From the NCBI RefSeq assembly GCF_036507355.1, contig NZ_AP027877.1: DNA of 64,000 nt, one strand, 5' to 3'. The translations under genes and the position numbers were made by a program. Within the stretch, counting starts at the first letter, position 1. Each line of letters opens with the position of its first letter. Below the pieces are notes generated by a model. That model was not told the origin of the DNA and did not search any database. It saw only the letters and a list, made by a program, of their open reading frames with translations. This document shows, one piece after another, positions 5,801 through 51,461 of the stretch. The stretch comes from Escherichia coli. Its GTDB lineage: Bacteria > Pseudomonadota > Gammaproteobacteria > Enterobacterales > Enterobacteriaceae.

Positions 5801-5957
5801 ACCCCGATCACGGATCTGGCATGATTTTGAACAAAAACAAATCACTAAAGCCTATTTTTTGTGCAAAATTTGCGTCAGGGAGAGGCTGCTCATTTCATTA
5901 AACGCGGTGGTTTGTTATCTTCGTTGCGCCTTATTTTTTAACCTGAAGAAGAGAACA

Positions 5958-7055
5958 ATGAAAGGACGTTGGGTAAAGTACCTTCTTATGGGCACGGTTG
6001 TGGCAATGCTTGCCGCCTGCTCTTCCAAACCAACCGATCGCGGACAGCAATATAAAGACGGGAAATTTACCCAGCCTTTCTCTCTGGTGAACCAGCCAGA
6101 TGCCGTTGGCGCGCCGATTAACGCCGGTGATTTTGCCGAGCAAATTAACCATATCCGTAATTCGTCACCGCGTCTGTATGGTAACCAGAGTAATGTTTAT
6201 AACGCGGTACAAGAGTGGCTGCGCGCAGGCGGTGATACCCGCAATATGCGTCAGTTCGGCATTGATGCCTGGCAGATGGAAGGTGCCGACAACTATGGTA
6301 ACGTGCAGTTTACCGGTTATTACACACCAGTAATTCAGGCGCGCCATACCCGCCAGGGCGAGTTTCAGTATCCGATTTACCGTATGCCGCCAAAACGTGG
6401 TCGTCTGCCGTCTCGTGCGGAGATCTACGCGGGGGCATTGAGTGATAAATATATTCTCGCTTACAGTAACTCCCTGATGGATAACTTCATTATGGATGTG
6501 CAGGGTAGTGGGTATATCGACTTTGGTGATGGCAGTCCGCTTAACTTTTTCAGCTATGCAGGGAAAAACGGTCATGCCTATCGCAGCATTGGTAAGGTGC
6601 TGATCGACCGTGGCGAAGTGAAAAAAGAAGATATGTCGATGCAGGCGATTCGTCACTGGGGCGAAACACACAGTGAAGCCGAGGTTCGCGAGCTGCTGGA
6701 ACAGAACCCGTCTTTCGTTTTCTTTAAACCGCAATCTTTTGCACCGGTGAAAGGGGCAAGTGCGGTGCCGCTGGTTGGCCGTGCTTCTGTTGCCTCCGAT
6801 CGTTCAATTATTCCGCCAGGTACAACCTTGCTGGCAGAAGTGCCGCTGCTGGATAATAACGGCAAATTTAACGGTCAGTACGAATTGCGTCTGATGGTGG
6901 CGCTGGATGTCGGTGGCGCAATCAAAGGCCAACACTTCGATATCTATCAAGGGATCGGGCCGGAAGCCGGACACCGTGCAGGTTGGTACAACCACTATGG
7001 ACGGGTTTGGGTGCTGAAAACGGCTCCGGGCGCAGGTAACGTCTTTAGCGGCTGA
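5958..7055 (+). CDS. mltA: Membrane-bound lytic murein transglycosylase A (lipoprotein)
   Basis: 365-aa product from ATG 5958; lipoprotein signal with lipobox LAAC; MltA-family sequence. The six-frame ORF (from 5676) runs back into the tRNA repeats and is not used. Confidence 0.9.
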   Translation: MKGRWVKYLLMGTVVAMLAACSSKPTDRGQQYKDGKFTQPFSLVNQPDAVGAPINAGDFAEQINHIRNSSPRLYGNQSNVYNAVQEWLRAGGDTRNMRQFGIDAWQMEGADNYGNVQFTGYYTPVIQARHTRQGEFQYPIYRMPPKRGRLPSRAEIYAGALSDKYILAYSNSLMDNFIMDVQGSGYIDFGDGSPLNFFSYAGKNGHAYRSIGKVLIDRGEVKKEDMSMQAIRHWGETHSEAEVRELLEQNPSFVFFKPQSFAPVKGASAVPLVGRASVASDRSIIPPGTTLLAEVPLLDNNGKFNGQYELRLMVALDVGGAIKGQHFDIYQGIGPEAGHRAGWYNHYGRVWVLKTAPGAGNVFSG

Positions 7056-15668: not shown

Positions 15669-15776
15669 AATCGCTCCTGCAATATAGCCGGATAACATTG
15701 CTTATCCGGCTAACCACTCTTGCTTGTTCAGGCCCGGTAGCCGGAGCGACCGGGCATCACATCAGGGAGTAATGTA

Positions 15777-17552
15777 TTAACGCTTGTACAACGGACCGTA
15801 GTTCTGGCAAGCGCGGTAATCCTGGCCTTCAATATCCATGCCGTGCGCAGCCCAGGCAGAAGGACGATACACTTTGGTCTCTTCAACGTTGTGCATACAT
15901 ACCGGGATACGCAGCATGGAGGCGAGAGTGATAAAGTCTGCGCCAACGTGGCCGATGGTCAGAACCCCATGGTTAGCGCCCCAGTTCTCCATTACCGAAT
16001 ACACATCCGTAAACGGCCCTTTACCGGTGAGGCGCGGTGCAAACCAGGTGGTTGGCCAGGTTGAGTTGGTGCGTTTGTTGAGGATGTCATGCACATCCTT
16101 CGGCAATTCCACGCTCCAGCCTTCCGCGATTTGCAGTACCGGTCCCAGGCCTTTGATGATGTTGACACGAGTCATGGTGAACGGGACGCCGCCTTCGGTA
16201 AGGAAGCGGGAAGAGTAACCGCCGCCACGGAAGTATTCGTGGATCGCCGGGCACCATTCGGTAGCGGCGAGGCAAGCGTCAGCCTCTTGCTGAGAGATTT
16301 CCCAGTGTGGCTTCATCGTCGGGTTACCTTCGCTGTCGCGTTGTTTACAGGAACCGTCCAGCGCAGCAGAACCTGAGTTGATCAAATGGATGATGCCGTG
16401 TTCTGCCAGTCCATCGAGTTTATGCCCCGTTACACGCTCAATTGCTTCTGGTGACCAGTAGGTACGCACATCGGCAAATACCTGAGCGGTGCCGGTGAGC
16501 TGGTGACCCATTAGCATTGCCACGCCGTTAAGACTGTCGTTTTCGGTCGCCACGACAAAGGGTTCGCGCACGCCATTCCAGTCAAATGAACTGTTAAGGA
16601 TCGCTTCGGCGGTGTCGCCATTGGGATATTGATCGGTCCAGTGGCGTTGCCCCTGGAAGCCCGCAGCGATAGCGTTGTAGCCAAGTGATTCTTCCACGCG
16701 ACCAATATCGGCCAGTTTGCTGTTGCCTTGCATCATGTCGCGGATACACATCGCCATCAGTAAACTTTCGCGCAGAACTGCGCGGTTTTGCTCGGCATTG
16801 CGTTGATACTGTTTGTTATTTTCATCTTCGCCATAGCGGAAGTTTTTATCAGCCCAGGCCAGCGCCATTTCCAGTTCGGCTTCGTCGTAAATCTTCTGAT
16901 CGATACGGCGACGAAGTTCGGTCATATCCACCGCCTGGACTTTCATTCCCAGCCAGGATTCAAAGAAGTTGTGATCAACAATAGATCCGGCGATACCCAT
17001 CGAAACGCCGCCCAGCGACAGATAGCTTTTACCTTTCATGCTGGCGACGGCCAAACCGGCGCGGGCAAAGCGCAGCAGTTTTTCTTCAACATCGGCAGGA
17101 ATCGATGTGTCATCGGCATCCTGAACGTCATGACCGTAAATGGAGAATGCCGGGATGCCTTTCTGGCTGTGAGCTGCCAGAGCCGCTGCCAGGTAAACAG
17201 CGCCGGGACGTTCAGTGCCGTTAAAGCCCCAAATGGCTTTCGGGCGGGTTGGATCCATGTCGATGGTTTCACTGCCATAGCACCAGCAAGGCGTTACCGT
17301 AATGGTGAGGCCTACATTCTGGCTGCTGAATTTTTCTTCGCAAGCAGCGGCTTCAGCCATACCCGCGATACAGGTATCGGAAATGACACACTCGACGGCA
17401 GCTCCGCAGGCATGGCGCAGTTTCTCGGTCAGCAGTGTGGCCGTGGCTTTCGCCATATTCATTGTTTGTTCTTCAAGCGACTCACGAACACCCATGCGAC
17501 GACCGTCAATAACCGGGCGGATACCAATTTTCGGTAACGTATTAATTTTCAT
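15777..17552 (-). CDS. fucI: L-fucose isomerase
   Basis: 591-aa FucI-family ORF; N-terminus [14 protein letters not shown]. Confidence 0.9.
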
Positions 17553-17634
17553 CAGGATTCCTCATCTCGCTTTATTGGCGCTCTGCTAAGGCGGAGAAAG
17601 GAAACCACCGAAGCAGTAGTATTGGTCATTATTT

Positions 17635-17650
17635 GCTAACTCGAGTTAGC
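17635..17650. promoter_or_regulatory. Perfect 16-bp palindrome GCTAACTCGAGTTAGC (candidate operator), copy 1
   Basis: Exact self-complementary 16-mer centred on CG in the fucI / ABC-transporter divergent intergenic region. Confidence 0.5.
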
Positions 17651-17694
17651 TTAGGTTCGTAGGCTTTTTATGCACAACTTTTTTGTTGTTGAAA

Positions 17695-17710
17695 TGTGAG
17701 GGGCTTCACG
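17695..17710. promoter_or_regulatory. CRP-like site TGTGA-N6-TCACG
   Basis: TGTGAggggctTCACG, 9 of 10 matches to the CRP core consensus, lying between the two palindromes. Confidence 0.4.
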
Positions 17711-17873
17711 AGAAGTGGTTAAAATACGATCTCTGTCAAATTATTATTTAGCGGGACAAAAATAAATTTTACGTATAATCATATGTTTATTAGATTTTAA
17801 TGGTTATGCATCACAGTTTTAACTCAAATGATTTGGCTAATTTGTATACCTAAAATAGCTTTAAAAGGCGATC

Positions 17874-17889
17874 GCTAACTCGAGTTAGC
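17874..17889. promoter_or_regulatory. Perfect 16-bp palindrome GCTAACTCGAGTTAGC (candidate operator), copy 2
   Basis: Identical to the copy at 17635-17650; centre-to-centre spacing 239 bp. Confidence 0.5.
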
Positions 17890-18021
17890 AAAATGCGAAG
17901 AATAGATTGATGCGATGAATATTTATTCAAAGGTTATTCGTATCACAGTGGAGATGGCTTTAGTAGCGACGTTTATGCCGTACTTCACATTTTCAGTTTC
18001 TGATTATTGAGGAAAGCTGCA

Positions 18022-19521
18022 ATGTCCGAAACATTTTTGCAAATGAAGCATATCACCAAACGCTTTCCTGGAGTGTTGGCGCTTAATGACGTGCAATTTT
18101 CCCTACGCCGGGGCGAGGTTCATGCATTATTAGGTGAAAATGGTGCAGGAAAATCTACCTTAATGAAAATTTTGTCGGGGGTTTATCAACCTGATGAAGG
18201 CGAAATAATTTTTGAAGATAAACCAGTCTCATTTTCTGATCCGTTAAGTGCGCAAAACGTAGGTATTACTATTATTCACCAGGAATTTAATTTATTTCCC
18301 GAGCTTACAGTAGAGGAAAATATTTTTATCGGCAGGGAGTTTTGTAAAAAAAATCGCTGGCGTCTGGATGAGAAACAGCAACGCCAGGCGACGATCGAAA
18401 TTTTGCAAAAATTAAATTTGGCGATCAAACCAGATACTCTGGTTGCCGACCTTACGGTAGCTCAACAGCAGATGGTTGAAATTGCCAAGGCCATTTCGGT
18501 TAACGCCAGGATTCTCATTATGGATGAACCTACTGCGGCGTTAACAGAAACTGAAATTGAAAGCTTATTTCGCGTCACCCGCTTATTGAAAGAGCAGGGG
18601 ACCGGCATTGTGTATATATCCCACCGTCTGGAAGAGTTGGCGCTAATTGCCGACCGCGCGACTGTAATGCGTGATGGTCAGTACATCAGTACGGTGGATT
18701 ATGAGTGCGTAAAAATCAGCGATCTGATTGCCATGATGGTTGGTCGCGATTTAGGGAATATCTATCCCCGCCGCGAGGCCATACAGCAGCGGATGCCGGT
18801 TCTGGAGGTCAACGGACTGACGCGCAAAGGCGTACTCAACGATATTAATTTTACGCTTTATCGTGGCGAGATCCTCGGCTTTGCCGGACTGATGGGGGCA
18901 GGTCGTACTGAACTTGCGCGTGCGATTTTTGGTGCGGACTCCATTGACAGCGGAACGCTAAAGTTAAATGGTAAGGAAACCGTTATTAAAGATATTTCGG
19001 ATGCTATTCAGCAGGGAATTAGTTACCTGACGGAAGACCGAAAAAAAGAAGGGTTGGCACTGAATTTATCTGTTGAACGAAATATTATGTTAGGAAATTA
19101 CCCTGAGTATTCCGATCGTTTTGGGAATGTCGATTCGCGTCGTTGCCAACAAACCAGTGAGGAACAGGTAAAAGCGTTAAGGATTAAAACGCCAAATCTT
19201 GAACAGGCTGCATTAAATCTAAGTGGAGGAAATCAGCAGAAAATTATAATTGCACGTTGGGTGTGTAAAGATACTGATATTTTAATCTTCGATGAACCCA
19301 CTCGCGGCATTGATGTTGGCGCCAAACTGGAAATCTATGAGTTAATGAATCGCCTGGTGGCAAAAGGGAAATCAATCATCATGATCTCCTCTGAATTGCC
19401 GGAGGTGTTAGGAATGTGCGACCGTATTTTAGTGATGCGCAGTGGTCGAATTACTGGCGAACTTAGCGCAAATGAAGCGACACAAGAAAAAATCATGCAA
19501 TACGCGACGTTAGAGGATTAA
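18022..19521 (+). CDS. Sugar ABC transporter ATP-binding protein, two fused ABC domains (CUT2 family, RbsA/XylG-like)
   Basis: 499-aa product from ATG 18022 (GAGGA RBS); Walker A GENGAGKST, second-domain signature LSGGNQQK and degenerate second P-loop GLMGAGRTE; about 42% GC. Confidence 0.85.
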   Translation: MSETFLQMKHITKRFPGVLALNDVQFSLRRGEVHALLGENGAGKSTLMKILSGVYQPDEGEIIFEDKPVSFSDPLSAQNVGITIIHQEFNLFPELTVEENIFIGREFCKKNRWRLDEKQQRQATIEILQKLNLAIKPDTLVADLTVAQQQMVEIAKAISVNARILIMDEPTAALTETEIESLFRVTRLLKEQGTGIVYISHRLEELALIADRATVMRDGQYISTVDYECVKISDLIAMMVGRDLGNIYPRREAIQQRMPVLEVNGLTRKGVLNDINFTLYRGEILGFAGLMGAGRTELARAIFGADSIDSGTLKLNGKETVIKDISDAIQQGISYLTEDRKKEGLALNLSVERNIMLGNYPEYSDRFGNVDSRRCQQTSEEQVKALRIKTPNLEQAALNLSGGNQQKIIIARWVCKDTDILIFDEPTRGIDVGAKLEIYELMNRLVAKGKSIIMISSELPEVLGMCDRILVMRSGRITGELSANEATQEKIMQYATLED

Positions 19522-19524
19522 ATT

Positions 19525-20508
19525 ATGACTATCTCTGTAACCTCTCCAGACAGCAATAATAAGAAAATAAAGATAAATAAAGAACTTTTGATGCGCCTTG
19601 CGCCTCTTTTTAGCTTAATTATATTAGCGCTGTTTTTTAGTTTCAGCTCTCCCTTTTTCTTTAATACCGAAAATATCATGACGATTGCTCTGCAAACGTC
19701 GGTTATCGGCATTATGGCCATTGGGGTAACTTTCGTCATTATTACCGCGGGCATCGATCTTTCATTGGGTTCCGTGGTGGCTTTTTCTGGTGTCGCCGTG
19801 GGGATTTGCGCCACACTGGGCCTGCCGCTGCCAGTGTGTATTATTGCCGGTGTTTTAGCCGGTGGAATGTGCGGCTATGTGAATGGTTTGTTGGTCACTA
19901 AAATGACTATTCCACCGTTTATCGCTACCTTGGGCCTGATGATGTCCGTCAGAGGTATCAATATGGTGATGACCGACGGGCGCGCCATCTATTTTGCCGA
20001 TTACCCGATGTTCAAAACGCTCGCTCAGGGACGCTTGTTTGATGTGCTACCTTATCCTGTTTTCTACCTGGTCATTGTGGCGCTTGTCGGCGCTTACATC
20101 CTGAAGAAAACGGTTATTGGTCGCTATGTCTATGCCGTAGGCAGTAATGAAGTTGCTGCTCATCTTTCTGGTATTAAAGTTCAGCGCGTGAAAATTTTCG
20201 TCTATGCCTTCTGTGGTTTATTAACCGGGATTGCGGGTGTCATTCTCGCTTCTCGTCTCAACTCCGGACAACCGACGGTAGGTGTGGGTTATGAGCTGGA
20301 AGCTATTGCTGCGGTAGTGATCGGCGGAACCAGCTTAATGGGCGGTATTGGCACTATTGGCGGCACAATCATTGGCGCTTTCATTATGAGTGTACTGAAA
20401 AATGGCCTCAATTTAATGGGGGTCTCTCAGTTCTGGCAAATGGTCGCGATGGGCGTAGTTGTGGTCGCTGCCGTTTACCTCGATACATTACGCAAAAAGA
20501 TTCGTTGA
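19525..20508 (+). CDS. Sugar ABC transporter permease (RbsC/XylH-like)
   Basis: 327-aa polytopic membrane ORF starting 4 nt after the ATPase stop with GAGGA RBS. Confidence 0.85.
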   Translation: MTISVTSPDSNNKKIKINKELLMRLAPLFSLIILALFFSFSSPFFFNTENIMTIALQTSVIGIMAIGVTFVIITAGIDLSLGSVVAFSGVAVGICATLGLPLPVCIIAGVLAGGMCGYVNGLLVTKMTIPPFIATLGLMMSVRGINMVMTDGRAIYFADYPMFKTLAQGRLFDVLPYPVFYLVIVALVGAYILKKTVIGRYVYAVGSNEVAAHLSGIKVQRVKIFVYAFCGLLTGIAGVILASRLNSGQPTVGVGYELEAIAAVVIGGTSLMGGIGTIGGTIIGAFIMSVLKNGLNLMGVSQFWQMVAMGVVVVAAVYLDTLRKKIR

Positions 20509-20581
20509 CTTAGGCTCCCTGTTTTATCGGGAAACAACTGCCCTGACGTTAAGGGTGATTCACTCAGAACGGAGTACAACA

Positions 20582-21532
20582 ATGAAAACCAGGCATTTTA
20601 TCTATGCGTTATCTCTGCTGGCTTGCGTAAGTTCCAGCGCACTGGCGAAGGATTTAAATCTTCCGGTTGTTAGTAAAGGTTTCCAACATGAATTCTGGCA
20701 AACCGTAAAAATGGGGACTGAAGCTGCGGCTAAAGAGTTGGGGGATAAAACCAGCTATGTTGGCCCGGCTGATGAAACGCAAATAGCCGAGCAAATTCAG
20801 TTAGTCGAAAATGCGATGGCGCAGAAACCGAATGGCTTGCTTCTGGCAGCCCTCGACGCGAATGCGCTCGCCCCACTGGTAGAAACGGCAAATTCACGCG
20901 GTATCAAAGTGGTGACCTTTGATTCAGGCATCAATTCAGACATTCCGGTGAGTTTTGTCGCCACCAATAACCGTAAAGCAGGTGCTCAGGCAGCTGATGC
21001 CTTAGCCGCGCAGGTAAATAATAAAGGGAAAGTAGGGATTATCGCGCACGTTGCAGGAACATCTTCCGCTATTGAACGCTCGGAAGGCTTCATGGAGCGT
21101 ATGAAAGAAAAATATCCTGACATTAAAGTTTTACCCGTTCAGTACAGCGATGGTGACCCGCAAAAAGCGATGGATAAAACTATCGATATGATTCAGGCCA
21201 ATCCCGATCTTGCTGGGATCTATGGCACCAATGAAGGTTCAACGCTCGGGGTGGCGAATGCCATTGATAGCCAGAATCTGAAAGGTAAGGTGAAGGTCAT
21301 TGGTTTTGATAGTACGGAAGCGATTATTAACTTCCTGAAGAACGGCGTCATTCAGGGCTTTGTTGTTCAGGATGCATACCAGATTGGCTATCAAGGGATC
21401 AAAACGTTGAACGCGGCCCTTTCGGGACAAGCCGTTGAAAAAGAGATCGATATTCCCGTGAAATTTGTTAATGCCGAGAATATTAACACGCCAGAAATCG
21501 ACAAACTCCTGCACCCATTCGGTAAGAAATAA
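20582..21532 (+). CDS. Periplasmic sugar-binding protein (RbsB-like)
   Basis: 316-aa product from ATG 20582 (GGAG RBS); Sec signal MKTRHFIYALSLLACVSSSALA; the six-frame ORF starting at 20459 is an over-extension. Confidence 0.85.
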   Translation: MKTRHFIYALSLLACVSSSALAKDLNLPVVSKGFQHEFWQTVKMGTEAAAKELGDKTSYVGPADETQIAEQIQLVENAMAQKPNGLLLAALDANALAPLVETANSRGIKVVTFDSGINSDIPVSFVATNNRKAGAQAADALAAQVNNKGKVGIIAHVAGTSSAIERSEGFMERMKEKYPDIKVLPVQYSDGDPQKAMDKTIDMIQANPDLAGIYGTNEGSTLGVANAIDSQNLKGKVKVIGFDSTEAIINFLKNGVIQGFVVQDAYQIGYQGIKTLNAALSGQAVEKEIDIPVKFVNAENINTPEIDKLLHPFGKK

Positions 21533-21539
21533 AAAAATT

Positions 21540-21559
21540 GGGGATGAATTTTCATCCCC
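21540..21559. other. Perfect 8-bp-stem hairpin between the binding-protein gene and the kinase gene
   Basis: GGGGATGA-attt-TCATCCCC preceded by an A7 run; no T-tract on the plus side, so it is not a canonical plus-strand terminator. Confidence 0.4.
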
Positions 21560-21585
21560 GTTATCTCCAGCGTCAGGGAGGCTTT

Positions 21586-23166
21586 ATGCACAACGGTTAT
21601 TTTCTCGGTGTCGATGTCGGATCGGCCAGTGTCAGGGCAGGCGTTTACAGTGCCAGTGGCCACAGGCTGGCATTCGCTACTGCGCCCGTCTCCCAGTTTC
21701 GCCCTGGCGGCGAGCGTGTTGAACAGTCTTCGGCGGAGATCTGGCAACAAGTTTGTAAAACGGTGAAAGAGGCGACAGCTTTGGCAGGCATCCCTGGTTC
21801 CGCAATTCGCTCGCTAGGTTTTGACGCTACTTGCTCGCTGGTTGTTCTTGATGAACAAGGCCAGGGTTTAGCTGTTTCGCCCGGTGGATCTGCGAATCAC
21901 GACATTATTATGTGGATGGATCATCGTGCAACTGTCGAGACGGCGCAGATTAACGCGACGAAGGATCCTGCATTGCGCTACGTTGGCGGCGAAGTGAGCG
22001 TCGAGATGGAGTTACCAAAGTTACGTTGGTTGAAGACGCATCTACCGCAAACCTGGCAGGCCGCTCATCGCTTTTTCGATCTGGCGGATTTTCTGGTCTG
22101 GAAAGCAACAGGGCGAGACGTCGCGGGATTATGCACGCTAACGTGTAAATGGAATTATCTGGCTCATGAGCAACGCTTTAGCCATAGCTTACTGGAATCG
22201 ATAGACCTGATCGATATGCTTGAAAGAATTCCTGCCGACATTCTTCCGCCTGGCGCTGCCGTGGGAACATTAACCGCCACAGCTGCTGAAGAGTTAGGAT
22301 TAACGACTAATGTTATCGTGGCCAGTGGCTTGATTGATGCCCATGCCGGTGGCGTGGCGCTGGCTGGCGCGCACCCATCAGGAACGCTGGCATTGATAAG
22401 CGGAACGTCGAACTGCCATATGCTGTGTAGTGAAAAAGAGATATTCACCCCTGGCGTCTGGGGGCCATACTGGTCGGCCATGTTGCCAAATTACTGGCTA
22501 ACCGAAGGCGGGCAAAGCGCCGCAGGGGCGCTGGTGGAGTGGACGCTTCAGGAGTCAGGGGCAAGCGCAAATCTTTTTCACAAGGCGCAGCAACGCGGAT
22601 GTCATCCGATTCAACTGATTAATGAATGGGTAGCCGCCCTGGAAGCTAACGAGTCAGAACCCACACGAAATTTACATGTGCTTGCCGATCATCACGGCAA
22701 CCGTTCGCCACGAGCGCGGCCCGATGCCAGAGGCAGTGTTTATGGCTTAACACTGGAGCGTGGTGAAAGTCAGCTCGCGCGACTTTATCTTGCGACTTTA
22801 CAGGCAATAGCCTTTGGCACCAGACATATTATTGAAACTCTCAGGGAAAATGGGCATACCATTACCCGATTAACATTATGTGGTGGTGCAACGCACAACC
22901 CTTTATGGCTACGCGAATATGCAGACGTGACAGGCTGCGATATCCACCTGATGCAAGAAGAAGATGCCGTTACATTGGGTGCAGCAATTAGCGGCGCTGT
23001 TGCCAGCGGAGCATGGGGGGATTTTACATCTGCGTGTAAAGCAATGGTTGAAGCCGGAGAGGTTATTCAGGTAAATCCACAACGCCGTGAATTTTTAGAG
23101 CGTAAATACCGGGTTTACCTGACGCTTTGGGAGCAACAACAGGCAGTTAACCAACTGATGCAATAA
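21586..23166 (+). CDS. FGGY-family carbohydrate kinase, pentulose (ribulokinase-like) type
   Basis: 526-aa product from ATG 21586 (AGGGAGG RBS); FGGY N- and C-terminal domains (GVDVGSASVR, IIMWMDHRA); distinct from fucK. Confidence 0.8.
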   Translation: MHNGYFLGVDVGSASVRAGVYSASGHRLAFATAPVSQFRPGGERVEQSSAEIWQQVCKTVKEATALAGIPGSAIRSLGFDATCSLVVLDEQGQGLAVSPGGSANHDIIMWMDHRATVETAQINATKDPALRYVGGEVSVEMELPKLRWLKTHLPQTWQAAHRFFDLADFLVWKATGRDVAGLCTLTCKWNYLAHEQRFSHSLLESIDLIDMLERIPADILPPGAAVGTLTATAAEELGLTTNVIVASGLIDAHAGGVALAGAHPSGTLALISGTSNCHMLCSEKEIFTPGVWGPYWSAMLPNYWLTEGGQSAAGALVEWTLQESGASANLFHKAQQRGCHPIQLINEWVAALEANESEPTRNLHVLADHHGNRSPRARPDARGSVYGLTLERGESQLARLYLATLQAIAFGTRHIIETLRENGHTITRLTLCGGATHNPLWLREYADVTGCDIHLMQEEDAVTLGAAISGAVASGAWGDFTSACKAMVEAGEVIQVNPQRREFLERKYRVYLTLWEQQQAVNQLMQ

Positions 23167-23230
23167 GACAAAAGTTGAAAATACTTTTATGATTGTGATT
23201 TGACGTCTGGATGTTAACTGGGAAATACCT

Positions 23231-24229
23231 ATGGCTAAAACAGTAGAGCAGATAGCCAGCGACCTGAATTTATCGGTTACGACCGTGCGACTGGTGCTAA
23301 ATGGAAAAGCGGAACAATATCGAATCAGCGTCAAAACCCAAACGCGTATCAATGAATATGTTGAACACTATGGTTATATCATTAATCATTCCGCTCGCAG
23401 CCTTAAACTTAACAAAACTGATACATTAGGGTTGATTGTTCCCAACATATCCAACGTCTTTTTTGCTACGCTGGCAGAAAAACTTGAACAACGCTGCCGA
23501 CGTTCCGGATATCAACTTACGATCAGTTGTACTTATGATGATGTCGACTATGAAAATAAATTGACGAAAGCATTTATCGCACGAAATGTAGATGGTCTTT
23601 TTATTGTTCCTTCGACGCTGGAGAATCAGCAGCATCATTTACGCAAAATTCGTAAACCAATGGTTTTACTCGACCGTGATTTTAAATATACCGATAATGC
23701 ATTGGTAGAGAGTAATAATATTTCTGGCGGAGAAAAGTTGACACAAAATATTCTTGAGGCCGGGCAGACTCCAGTATGGTTTTTGCTGGGGGATGCCGGT
23801 TTGCCGAGTATCAGCGATCGTCTGACAGGTTATTTGAATGCGTTGGAAAAAAAAGGGATTACCCATCGCGATTGGGTGCGAGAAGGCCCGGTAAATACTC
23901 CGGAAGGCGGCTATGTCATTATGGAAAAACTCATTGAAGAGCAGGGATGTCCGCAGGCATTTATCGCCTCGTCTTTACCTGTGCTTGAAGGCGCTGTCCG
24001 CGCGATTCGCGACCGTCTTGGCGCTGTACCGCCAGAAATCAATATTGGCACTTTCGATGAACATCCCATGCTGGGATTTCTCGCCAACAATGTCTGGTCA
24101 ATGCAGCAGGATGAAAATGCCTGGGCAGAAAAAGCGTTCGAAATGATGTTAAGCGCGATCGAAGAAAGACCAGTCAAAAAAACAGTCAAAGTAGAAATGA
24201 AATTAATTAAGCGCATAAGAAAAAAATAA
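23231..24229 (+). CDS. LacI-family transcriptional regulator
   Basis: 332-aa ORF with N-terminal LacI HTH (VEQIASDLNLSVTTVRLVLNG) and periplasmic-binding-like effector domain; about 43% GC. Confidence 0.85.
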   Translation: MAKTVEQIASDLNLSVTTVRLVLNGKAEQYRISVKTQTRINEYVEHYGYIINHSARSLKLNKTDTLGLIVPNISNVFFATLAEKLEQRCRRSGYQLTISCTYDDVDYENKLTKAFIARNVDGLFIVPSTLENQQHHLRKIRKPMVLLDRDFKYTDNALVESNNISGGEKLTQNILEAGQTPVWFLLGDAGLPSISDRLTGYLNALEKKGITHRDWVREGPVNTPEGGYVIMEKLIEEQGCPQAFIASSLPVLEGAVRAIRDRLGAVPPEINIGTFDEHPMLGFLANNVWSMQQDENAWAEKAFEMMLSAIEERPVKKTVKVEMKLIKRIRKK

Positions 24230-24362
24230 TAATCGCCAAAAGATAATCAGGCTATTGAACAATGATATTCAGTGGCCACCCCTTACTAAAAATAACCCCG
24301 TCTTCATTTGCGGTGCTGTTTTACGCAACAAGGCGAGCTGGAACTGTATCTGGAGAATAGAG

Positions 24363-25010
24363 ATGGAAAGAACACGTTTATCCCGTGAAATAATTGAAAC
24401 CTGTCTGGAAATGACGCGCCTTGGGTTAAATCAGGGGACTGCGGGGAATGTCAGCACACGTTTTGAAAACGGCATGTTGATTACTCCAAGCGGTATTCCT
24501 TATGAAAGAATGACGGAGAATATGATTGTCTATGTTGATGGCAACGGCAAATACGAAGAAGGTAAGATTCCTTCCAGCGAATGGCGTTTCCATATGGCGG
24601 CCTATCAAAGCAGACCGGATGCCAACGCGGTTGTTCACAATCATGCCGTTCATTGCACAGCAGTTTCCATTCTTAACCGACCGATCCCCGCTATTCACTA
24701 CATGATTGCGGCGGCTGGCGGTAATTCTATTCCTTGCGCGCCTTATGCGACCTTTGGAACACGCGAACTTTCTGAACATGTTGCGCTGGCTCTCAAAAAT
24801 CGTAAGGCAACTTTGTTACAACATCATGGGCTTATCGCTTGTGAGGTGAATCTGGAAAAAGCGTTATGGCTGGCGCATGAAGTTGAAGTGCTGGCGCAAC
24901 TTTACCTGACGACCCTGGCGATTACGGACCCGGTGCCAGTGCTGAGCGATGAAGAAATTGCCGTAGTGCTGGAGAAATTCAAAACCTATGGGTTACGGAT
25001 TGAAGAGTAA
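24363..25010 (+). CDS. fucA: L-fuculose-1-phosphate aldolase (class II); N-terminal third diverged from the K-12 sequence
   Basis: 215-aa product from ATG 24363 (GGAGA RBS); residues from about 70 onward match K-12 FucA as I recall it, the first ~70 differ at about 18 positions. Confidence 0.85.
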   Translation: MERTRLSREIIETCLEMTRLGLNQGTAGNVSTRFENGMLITPSGIPYERMTENMIVYVDGNGKYEEGKIPSSEWRFHMAAYQSRPDANAVVHNHAVHCTAVSILNRPIPAIHYMIAAAGGNSIPCAPYATFGTRELSEHVALALKNRKATLLQHHGLIACEVNLEKALWLAHEVEVLAQLYLTTLAITDPVPVLSDEEIAVVLEKFKTYGLRIEE

Positions 25011-25037
25011 TTTCGTAAAGCAACAAGGAGAAGGATG

Positions 25038-26186
25038 ATGGCTAACAGAATGATTCTGAACGAAACGGCATGGTTTGGTCGGGGCGCTGTTGGGGCTTTA
25101 ACCGATGAGGTGAAACGCCGTGGTTATCAGAAGGCGCTGATCGTCACCGATAAAACGCTGGTGCAATGCGGCGTGGTGGCGAAAGTGACCCATAAGATGG
25201 ATGCTGCAGGGCTGGCATGGGCGATTTACGACGGCGTAGTACCCAACCCAACAATTACTGTCGTCAAAGAAGGGCTCGGTGTATTCCAGAATAGCGGCGC
25301 GGATTACCTGATCGCTATTGGTGGTGGTTCTCCACAGGATACTTGTAAAGCGATTGGCATTATCAGCAACAACCCGGAGTTTGCCGATGTGCGTAGCCTG
25401 GAAGGACTTTCCCCGACCAATAAACCCAGTTTACCGATTCTGGCAATCCCCACCACAGCAGGCACTGCGGCAGAAGTGACCATTAACTACGTGATCACTG
25501 ACGAAGAAAAACGGCGCAAGTTTGTTTGCGTTGATCCGCATGATATCCCGCAGGTGGCGTTTATTGACGCTGACATGATGGATGGTATGCCTCCAGCGCT
25601 GAAAGCTGCGACGGGTGTCGATGCGCTCACTCATGCTATTGAGGGGTATATTACCCGTGGCGCGTGGGCGCTAACCGATGCACTGCACATTAAAGCGATT
25701 GAAATCATTGCTGGGGCGCTGCGAGGATCGGTTGCTGGTGATAAGGATGCCGGAGAAGAAATGGCGCTCGGGCAGTATGTTGCGGGTATGGGCTTCTCGA
25801 ATGTTGGGTTAGGGTTGGTGCATGGGATGGCGCATCCACTGGGCGCGTTTTACAACACTCCACACGGTGTTGCGAACGCCATCCTGTTACCGCATGTCAT
25901 GCGCTATAACGCTGACTTTACCGGTGAGAAGTACCGCGATATCGCGCGCGTTATGGGCGTGAAAGTGGAAGGTATGAGCCTGGAAGAGGCGCGTAATGCC
26001 GCTGTTGAAGCGGTGTTTGCTCTCAACCGTGATGTCGGTATTCCGCCACATTTGCGTGATGTTGGTGTACGCAAGGAAGACATTCCGGCACTGGCGCAGG
26101 CGGCACTGGATGATGTTTGTACCGGTGGCAACCCGCGTGAAGCAACGCTTGAGGATATTGTAGAGCTTTACCATACCGCCTGGTAA
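25038..26186 (+). CDS. fucO: L-1,2-propanediol oxidoreductase (iron-containing alcohol dehydrogenase)
   Basis: 382-aa Fe-ADH family ORF (an additional ATG lies at 25035). Confidence 0.9.
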   Translation: MANRMILNETAWFGRGAVGALTDEVKRRGYQKALIVTDKTLVQCGVVAKVTHKMDAAGLAWAIYDGVVPNPTITVVKEGLGVFQNSGADYLIAIGGGSPQDTCKAIGIISNNPEFADVRSLEGLSPTNKPSLPILAIPTTAGTAAEVTINYVITDEEKRRKFVCVDPHDIPQVAFIDADMMDGMPPALKAATGVDALTHAIEGYITRGAWALTDALHIKAIEIIAGALRGSVAGDKDAGEEMALGQYVAGMGFSNVGLGLVHGMAHPLGAFYNTPHGVANAILLPHVMRYNADFTGEKYRDIARVMGVKVEGMSLEEARNAAVEAVFALNRDVGIPPHLRDVGVRKEDIPALAQAALDDVCTGGNPREATLEDIVELYHTAW

Positions 26187-26240
26187 ATGCGCTGATGTGA
26201 TAATGCCGGATGCGACGTTTGCGGCGTATTCGGCACGCCG

Positions 26241-27107
<867 letters not shown>

Positions 27108-33535: not shown

Positions 33536-33892
33536 GAGTCAGACAACGAAGTGAACATCAGGATGATGACACTTCTGAAGGACACACCAGGATGGTGTTT
33601 CAGGGAAAGGCTTCTGGATGAAGCGAAGAGGATGACGCAGGACGCGTTAAAGGACACCTCCAGGATGGAGAATGAGAACCGGTCAGGATGATTCGGTGGG
33701 TCAGGAAGGCCAGGGACACTTCAGGATGAAGTATCACATCGGGGTGGTGTGAGCAGGAAGCAATAGTTCAGGATGAACGATTGGCCGCAAGGCCAGAGGA
33801 AAAGTTGTCAAGGATGAGCAGGGAGCAACAAATGTAGCTGGAATGCTGCGAAACGAACCGGGAGCACTGTGAATACAGTGCTCCCTTTTTTT
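33536..33892 (+). ncRNA. csrB: CsrB, CsrA-sequestering small RNA
   Basis: About 360 nt with roughly 18 CAGGAUG/AGGA repeats, ending in the intrinsic terminator GGAGCACUGUGAAUACAGUGCUCCCUUUUUUU; 5' end approximate. Confidence 0.9.
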
Positions 33893-40015: not shown

Positions 40016-40046
40016 CCAAAACCGGCTCTGTCAGGAGCCGGTTTGA
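40016..40046. terminator. Bidirectional hairpin terminator between convergent gudD and barA
   Basis: AACCGGCTC-tgtcagg-GAGCCGGTT with T-rich tract on the minus-strand side. Confidence 0.5.
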
Positions 40047-50024: not shown

Positions 50025-50096
50025 GTAAAAAAGTTAGAACGGCAACGCGTACCCTGGGTACGCGTTGTTTGTCTGGAGTTTCAGTTTAACTAGTGA

Positions 50097-51430: not shown

Positions 51431-51461
51431 AAAAAACCCGCTTCTTGAAGCGGGTTTTTTT
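51431..51461. terminator. Rho-independent terminator downstream of eno (bidirectional)
   Basis: AAAAAACCCGCTTC-ttga-GAAGCGGGTTTTTTT. Confidence 0.8.

Follow-up and report, generated by a model that had tools for sequence, protein, structure and literature searches.

The Alternative fuc Locus

The window analyzed here is the whole 64,000-nt stretch of Escherichia coli DNA (contig NZ_AP027877.1), numbered 5′ to 3′ on one strand. Between fucI (minus strand) and fucA-fucO (plus strand), it contains a co-directional set of genes for an ATPase, a permease, a binding protein, a kinase and a LacI-type regulator, which occupies the position of fucP in K-12. The interval from fucI to fucA (17553-24362), made up of a 469-nt control region, the ABC transporter genes, the DarK kinase gene and the regulator gene, replaces both fucP and the fucA-fucP control region of K-12. 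The 469-nt spacer between fucI and the ATPase gene was found only in the 381 variant-bearing genomes. The first gene of the transporter operon (18022-19521, plus strand) encodes an ABC transporter ATP-binding protein that matched an RbsA/XylG-like NCBIfam model (E = 1e-176) and is annotated in E. coli R32_14_1F. It is followed by an annotated permease gene (19525-20508, plus strand; NCBIfam ribose-type permease, Pfam BPD_transp_2) and by an annotated gene for a 316-aa periplasmic substrate-binding protein (20582-21532, plus strand; Pfam Peripla_BP_4, E = 5e-70), the stop codon of which (TAA) lies at 21530-21532. The next gene (21586-23166, plus strand) codes for an FGGY pentulose kinase, the DarK D-ribulokinase of E. 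coli B, with a score of 532 bits against TIGR01315 (cutoff 409). Its BL21 orthologue is WP_000551482, and the darK locus tag is ECD_02649 (PMC6150544). In PMC12307932, which cites Elsinghorst and Mortlock (1994), DarK is said to enable growth of E. coli B on D-arabinose. The set closes with a LacI-family regulator gene (23231-24229, plus strand), identified from annotation and profile matches. A promoter scan found a promoter-like sequence, AAGACA-17-TATGAT, at 23165-23193 (plus strand), where it overlaps the darK stop codon. This sequence precedes the regulator gene and is conserved in both Escherichia and Citrobacter, with or without darK; it is probably the regulator gene's own promoter.

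Of 5426 complete E. coli genomes, 382 (~7%) carry the arrangement as a single chromosomal copy; BL21, BLR(DE3) and T7 Express are among them. In earlier work, the fucP-replacing ABC transporter is termed "variant 2" of the fuc operon and BL21 serves as the type (PMC10221146); DarK has been described as inserted into the L-fucose locus (PMC12307932). A scan with the binding protein, using one genome per species, returned 55 loci, and binding-protein orthologues were linked to fucI/fucA in more than 30 species. The neighborhood of fucI, transporter, regulator and fucA was found in Citrobacter, E. whittamii, Enterobacter, Lelliottia, Buttiauxella, Atlantibacter, Pluralibacter and a Serratia, and looser versions of it occurred in Sodalis and Vibrio. 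The preliminary description of this DNA had placed the segment in an "island," a label that fits poorly, since the segment represents an alternative fuc-locus layout that is already known and occurs widely in Enterobacterales (PMC10221146). The hairpin that is the subject of this analysis is not mentioned in these papers on the locus (PMC10221146, PMC12307932, PMC6150544), and no Term-seq dataset for BL21 was found in the literature.

Divergence across the locus was unequal. Between E. coli and Citrobacter (20582-23166 compared with loci L003-L014), the binding protein was 93-95% identical at the amino acid level and the adjoining DarK only 79-81%; the corresponding values were 89-91% for the ATPase and 84-92% for the regulator. 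Either relaxed constraint on DarK or a recombination boundary close to the hairpin could account for this. In E. coli strain Ec-RL2-1X (NZ_CP066839.1; locus L061, positions 1-45), the binding-protein gene is interrupted toward its 3′ end by an IS1A element, ~90 nt before the hairpin. The annotation of this locus lists no binding-protein CDS, and the transporter is presumably inactivated in that strain.

The Stem-Loop Downstream of the Binding-Protein Gene

A stem-loop (GGGGATGAATTTTCATCCCC) was found on the plus strand at 21540-21559, between the binding-protein and kinase genes. It is composed of a 5′ arm, GGGGATGA (21540-21547), a 4-nt loop, ATTT (21548-21551), and a 3′ arm, TCATCCCC (21552-21559), which together form a perfect 8-bp stem with five G-C pairs. 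A 7-nt spacer separates the stem from the binding-protein stop codon on its 5′ side, and 26 nt separate it from the kinase start codon on its 3′ side. A stable stem-loop thus stands directly behind one cistron of a co-directional operon, and no promoter-like site parts it from the kinase gene. The hairpin is preceded by an A-rich spacer, AAAAATT (21533-21539, plus strand), which is E. coli-specific and length-polymorphic, and is followed by the kinase-gene leader (21560-21585, plus strand). The leader consists of GTTATCTCC, which holds no U-tract, and then a block, CCAGCGTCAGGGAG, that is conserved in alignments and contains the Shine-Dalgarno sequence AGGGAGG (21575-21581) ahead of the kinase ATG at 21586. 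The preliminary description had reported a perfect hairpin at this junction, with an A-run on its 5′ side and no U-tract on its 3′ side on the coding strand, and the present analysis agrees with it on both points. In the leaders of E. coli and E. whittamii, the Shine-Dalgarno sequence of darK could be sequestered by a weak 4-bp pairing of CUCC with GGAG (21566-21581 in the window); in Citrobacter, the CTCC is absent and AGCC is found instead.

In a 31-nt context, the predicted free energy of the RNA fold was -14.3 kcal/mol (z = -4.5), and none of 200 dinucleotide shuffles equaled it. At 8 bp and about -13 to -14 kcal/mol, the stem is modest in absolute terms. The chance expectation of a perfect hairpin of at least 8 bp in a 53-nt spacer was ~0.005, or 0.002 when at least five G-C pairs were required, and the window as a whole contained 17 perfect hairpins of at least 8 bp, compared to 5.6 ± 2.6 in shuffled sequence. 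Other perfect hairpins in the window, with stems of 10-13 bp, lie at 15685-15712, 27074-27098, 33860-33885, 40019-40044, 50043-50067 and 51431-51460. The first of these (TAGCCGGATAA...TTATCCGGCTA) is located just downstream of fucI, and the last (AAAAAACCCGC-TTCTTGAA-GCGGGTTTTTT) has the shape of a textbook bidirectional terminator. A scan of Rfam covariance models over positions 17000-27000 on both strands gave no match at E ≤ 1. No copy of the 20-mer other than the hairpin itself was found in the whole window at ≤3 mismatches, and the 241-nt region around it occurred once per genome.

As duplex DNA, the same sequence is an inverted repeat with two 9-bp halves and a 2-bp center, TT. Considering that a LacI-family regulator is encoded 1.7 kb downstream, such a palindrome might be a protein-bound site, for instance an operator for that regulator; we regard this as scarcely credible. 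The half-site varies from species to species despite 84-96% identity of the regulator, a second copy at ≤3 mismatches was lacking throughout the window, including both promoter regions, and no promoter adjoins the palindrome. Moreover, LacI-family operators typically have a central CG, which this palindrome does not. On account of the unconserved half-sites and the missing second copy, an operator for the LacI-type regulator was rejected.

Conservation and Covariation of the Stem

Stable hairpins were present 0-7 nt past the binding-protein stop codon in Escherichia, Citrobacter, Atlantibacter and Buttiauxella. Those of Escherichia and Citrobacter begin 6-7 nt past the stop codon; the hairpins of Atlantibacter and Buttiauxella, which begin about 4-7 nt past it, are unrelated in sequence but stronger. 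In 23 of 30 Enterobacterales loci, the 40 nt following the stop codon out-folded at least 95% of the 40-nt windows of the same gene. These coding windows are more informative than z-scores from dinucleotide shuffles of the post-stop 40 nt, which are conservative because the shuffles retain G-runs and C-runs.

All 16 Escherichia and Citrobacter stems were canonical at every pair and shared an invariant GGGG/CCCC base, and the pairs at positions 5-8 from the base were each represented by three or four pair types. The arms were GGGGATGA/TCATCCCC in E. coli, GGGGGTGA/TCACCCCC in E. whittamii, GGGGGCAA/TTGCCCCC in one group of Citrobacter and GGGGCGA/TCGCCCC in the C. freundii complex. We observed a clean double substitution between the two Escherichia species, whose silent sites are only 61% identical, in which an A-U pair of E. 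coli corresponds to a G-C pair of E. whittamii. In a model-fitted alignment, 91.6% of the cells were paired, compared to 54-68% with slid partners, and three pairs had changed on both sides; these counts understate the pairing, as the covariance-model alignment set the E. coli stem (8 bp) 1 nt out of register with most Citrobacter stems (7 bp). Pairs were therefore re-counted for each sequence from the base of the stem. Covariation counts across the Citrobacter sequences are phylogenetically non-independent events.

The sequences surrounding the stem have diverged extensively. Four-fold degenerate sites of the adjacent gene were 36-43% identical between E. coli and Citrobacter, and the loop, spacer and tail ~51-52% identical, versus 100% for the GGGG/CCCC base of the stem. 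The leader block CCAGCGTCAGGGAG was 92% identical across Escherichia and Citrobacter, versus ~51% for the post-stem tail. Silent sites are near saturation across the genera compared, and the stem sequence is clade-specific with its pairing always kept. A neutral 8-bp stem would not be expected to survive such divergence, which argues that the pairing is under selection; on the evidence of these alignments, it is the structure that selection holds in place. Within E. coli, the variants among seven spacers inspected from the 382 genomes differed only in loop and spacer, never in the stem, and the sole variant outside the spacer was a change of the loop from ATTT to ATTC.

Association of the Hairpin with the Binding-Protein Gene

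The hairpin was intact in the kinase-less loci of C. amalonaticus and C. sedlakii. In these species, as well as in the kinase-less loci of Pseudenterobacter and Pluralibacter, the last 25-50 nt of the kinase ORF remain, just upstream of the conserved promoter-like AAGACA-17-TATGAT of the regulator gene. The remnants (e.g., ...GGTTAACCAACTGATGTAGTAAGACAAA) were located at positions 5952-6093 of locus L004, 5952-6220 of L009, 5952-6092 of L016, 5952-6122 of L018 and 5952-6083 of L013, and the loci bearing them include, besides C. amalonaticus and C. sedlakii, Pseudenterobacter timonensis and a Pluralibacter metagenome-assembled genome. A 3′ remnant of the kinase gene at kinase-less loci implies that the gene was deleted there, and the pattern of remnants indicates that darK has been lost repeatedly and independently. 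We also considered the hairpin as the old terminator of a three-gene transporter operon into which the kinase gene was inserted later; this was rejected, as the kinase-less loci retain a kinase remnant.

Conversely, E. hormaechei, Huaxiibacter and Lelliottia have the same junction between binding protein and kinase with an 11-nt spacer and no hairpin, so that the hairpin is dispensable in some lineages, the Enterobacter hormaechei group among them. In Enterobacteriaceae bacterium RIT691 (locus L037, positions 5952-6113), the two genes are separated by 163 nt of unrelated sequence with no hairpin directly after the stop codon, which represents a third type of junction besides the hairpin type and the 11-nt type. 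Since the hairpin is kept where the kinase gene is missing and is absent from some loci that have it, its association is with the binding-protein gene's 3′ end and not with the 5′ end of the kinase gene.

The same distribution bears on the idea that the hairpin serves the downstream message, either as a stem-loop that protects the 5′ end of darK mRNA once RNase E has cut the A/U-rich spacer, or as the 3′ end of a small RNA resembling RbsZ. The AAAUU directly 5′ of the stem does resemble RNase E sites, judging from its sequence, and RbsZ is formed at the analogous rbsB-rbsK junction (PMC8175672; bioRxiv 10.1101/2023.08.28.555190). Nevertheless, a hairpin that persists where darK was deleted and is missing at some darK loci fits neither version well, the A/U spacer is confined to E. 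coli, and an RbsZ-like RNA would have no U-tail for Hfq binding and a 3′ UTR of only 27 nt. We consider a role of this type very doubtful.

Polarity of the Hairpin

On the plus strand, the hairpin has the G+C-rich stem (in the range of ~5-12 bp) and the short loop of an intrinsic terminator, but the sequence directly 3′ of the stem is GTTATCTCC, with no U-tract. A consensus scan accordingly made no plus-strand call and scored the hairpin as terminator-like on the minus strand only, where the stem GGGGATGAAAATTCATCCCC is followed by the T-run AATTTTTTTA. That the hairpin reads as a terminator on the opposite strand, with no minus-strand gene running into it, had been noted in the preliminary description and holds true. 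No annotated minus-strand gene runs into the hairpin, and the minus-strand ORFs are only antisense ORFs within plus-strand genes.

Relatives of E. coli show a different polarity. In several Citrobacter species (loci L005, L007, L008 and L014), five or six Ts directly follow the stem on the coding strand, and the scanner called plus-strand terminators. Other Citrobacter have a degraded T-run (TTATT, TAATT), and Escherichia has lost the coding-strand T-run altogether (GTTATC, GTGAGC). No promoter-like site was found from the hairpin to the kinase start in the Escherichia and Citrobacter loci scanned. This implies that the kinase gene is transcribed through the hairpin, and that the versions with a T-run are at most partial terminators.

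Most of the T-run on the minus strand comes from the conserved Lys-Lys-stop codons of the binding-protein gene (AAGAAATAA), read as their reverse complement. In E. coli alone, the 6-7 nt spacer has turned A/T, which makes this T-run contiguous with the stem. The spacer reads AAAATT in BL21, AAAAATT in the window and AAAAAAT in R32_14_1F; in relatives, it reads AATGTT (E. whittamii) and GACCGT or ACCCGT (Citrobacter). The minus-strand T-run is therefore not conserved at orthologous loci, the 6-nt spacer of Citrobacter containing G and C and parting the stem from the Lys-Lys-stop codons. Furthermore, no promoter-like site was found on the minus strand over the 1.6 kb from 21560 to ~23189, the nearest upstream one lying at ~23217. 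The minus-strand terminator look thus appears to be a by-product of the Lys-Lys-stop codons and of an E. coli-specific, length-polymorphic A-run, with no minus-strand gene or promoter nearby.

A functional intrinsic terminator on the minus strand, which would insulate the transporter genes of E. coli from antisense transcripts arising within or beyond darK, is quite unlikely for the same reasons, and because the hairpin long predates that polarity. In its favor, the scan call was made on that strand only (an 8-bp stem and then AATTTTTTTA), a contiguous T-run of at least 6 nt was kept in all E. coli variants examined, and E. whittamii also passes a lenient form of the rule. The loss of the coding-strand U-tract, taken together with the gain of a contiguous T-run on the other strand, could also be read as a reversal, in which Escherichia flipped the polarity of an ancestral intra-operon terminator and the hairpin became a one-way valve that lets sense transcription pass to darK and stops antisense transcription before the transporter genes. 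We view this as a long shot.

Proposed Function

We lean toward the interpretation that the hairpin works on the coding strand as an intercistronic stem-loop, a decay barrier or weak attenuator that would part expression of the transporter from that of the kinase. The hairpin would act in the plus-strand transcript that runs from the ATPase gene through the permease and binding-protein genes to darK. In E. coli, where the U-tract is missing, it would most likely serve mainly as a barrier to 3′-to-5′ exonucleases after termination or cleavage downstream, and would be at most a weak, context-dependent terminator or pause site. As a consequence, the transporter (binding-protein) message would outlast or outnumber the darK message. 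In those Citrobacter relatives that have a U-tract, the same hairpin would probably be a genuine, partial intrinsic terminator, i.e., an attenuator. The U-tract is inconsistent across relatives, and the mechanism may accordingly differ by lineage. A stem that is conserved across lineages while the U-tract is not points to a function that needs the stem only, and a darK gene that is read through the hairpin is in keeping with tuning rather than full termination.

The preliminary description had likened the hairpin to the stabilizing or attenuating stem-loops that follow binding-protein genes, and at the sequence level it has every feature that defines this intercistronic class. This reading gains from the pairing kept across genera, the persistence of the hairpin in loci that lack the kinase gene, the plus-strand T-runs of Citrobacter and the parallel with rbsB-rbsK described below; the hairpin may be either a stabilizer or an attenuator, and we infer both the formation of the hairpin in vivo and its effect on transcript levels. 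Two features of the locus qualify the expected outcome. The binding-protein gene is third in the operon, and a cap at its 3′ end would stabilize the whole upstream message and not the binding-protein segment alone. In addition, the stem begins so close to the stop codon (7 nt) that its 5′ arm would lie under a terminating ribosome, and its formation may depend on the coupling of translation to transcription. A change of the 5′ arm from GGGGATGA to GGGCATGA would disrupt the stem, and the partner change from TCATCCCC to TCATGCCC would restore pairing.

The absence of the U-tract from Escherichia and its presence in several Citrobacter, along with the ability of the Enterobacter group to manage without any hairpin, would also be expected if the E. 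coli hairpin were a decayed relic, an ancestral plus-strand terminator that lost its U-tract and whose stem has no present effect. We consider this unlikely, although a good deal less far-fetched than an operator, given that the stem survived an A-U to G-C double change while silent sites of E. coli and E. whittamii drifted to 61% identity, and that the E. coli variants seen alter only the loop and spacer.

If the proposed decay barrier or attenuator is correct, the hairpin sets the ratio at which the alternative L-fucose/D-arabinose ABC transporter and the DarK D-ribulokinase are expressed. This would be of modest practical relevance for engineering or modeling the use of fucose or D-arabinose in B strains, as the locus is present in BL21 and REL606. 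The series of orthologues also offers a clean natural case in which compensatory changes preserve a stem as its U-tract is gained and lost. Taken as a whole, the hairpin belongs to a well-known kind of element, of which it is a previously undescribed case within a known accessory locus, and it challenges no existing concept.

Comparison with Known Systems

The hairpin shares with canonical intrinsic terminators a G+C-rich stem and a short loop near a stop codon, and the Citrobacter orthologues with T5-T6 fit that class. The E. coli version differs in that its coding-strand tail (GTTATCTCC) has no U-run and the next co-directional gene starts 26 nt on. It resembles bidirectional terminators (A-tract, hairpin, U-tract) in having an A-run 5′ of a symmetric hairpin and a minus strand that reads as a terminator; however, only one side is A/T-rich, no convergent genes are present, and the A-run is lineage-specific and partly coding.

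Stem-loops located after binding-protein genes (malE, hisJ) were reportedly found by Newbury and colleagues in 1987 to stabilize the upstream mRNA. Like the REP elements of malE-malF and hisJ-hisQ, the hairpin studied here is a stable stem-loop, with no U-tract, 3′ of the binding-protein cistron of a polycistronic ABC operon, and the expected effect is the same, namely more upstream than downstream message. It is not itself a REP or BIME element, which would occur in many dispersed copies and match the REP consensus. In contrast, the hairpin is found once per genome (and is unique in the window at ≤3 mismatches), departs from that consensus and has a shorter stem.

The closest parallel to the hairpin is the rbsB-rbsK spacer of K-12. 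In the rbs operon, the genes follow one another in the same order (ATPase, permease, binding protein, kinase, LacI-type repressor), and a structured spacer likewise lies just upstream of the kinase start within a co-directional operon. The two spacers have no sequence similarity, and the kinases belong to different families (PfkB in rbs, FGGY for darK). They also differ in layout, the rbs spacer being 125 nt long with three hairpins and that of the fuc locus 53 nt with one. The last rbs hairpin has a U-tract (ATTTTAT) and forms a terminator 16 nt before the rbsK start, unlike the fuc-locus hairpin; this terminator is the 3′ end of the small RNA RbsZ (PMC8175672; bioRxiv 10.1101/2023.08.28.555190). 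In the K-12 sequence that we folded (locus L062, positions 262-400), the three hairpins are consecutive, with z = -3.9 over 139 nt. The first of them, with an 8-bp stem and a 4-nt loop located 5 nt past the rbsB stop codon, is very similar in geometry to the hairpin at 21540-21559.
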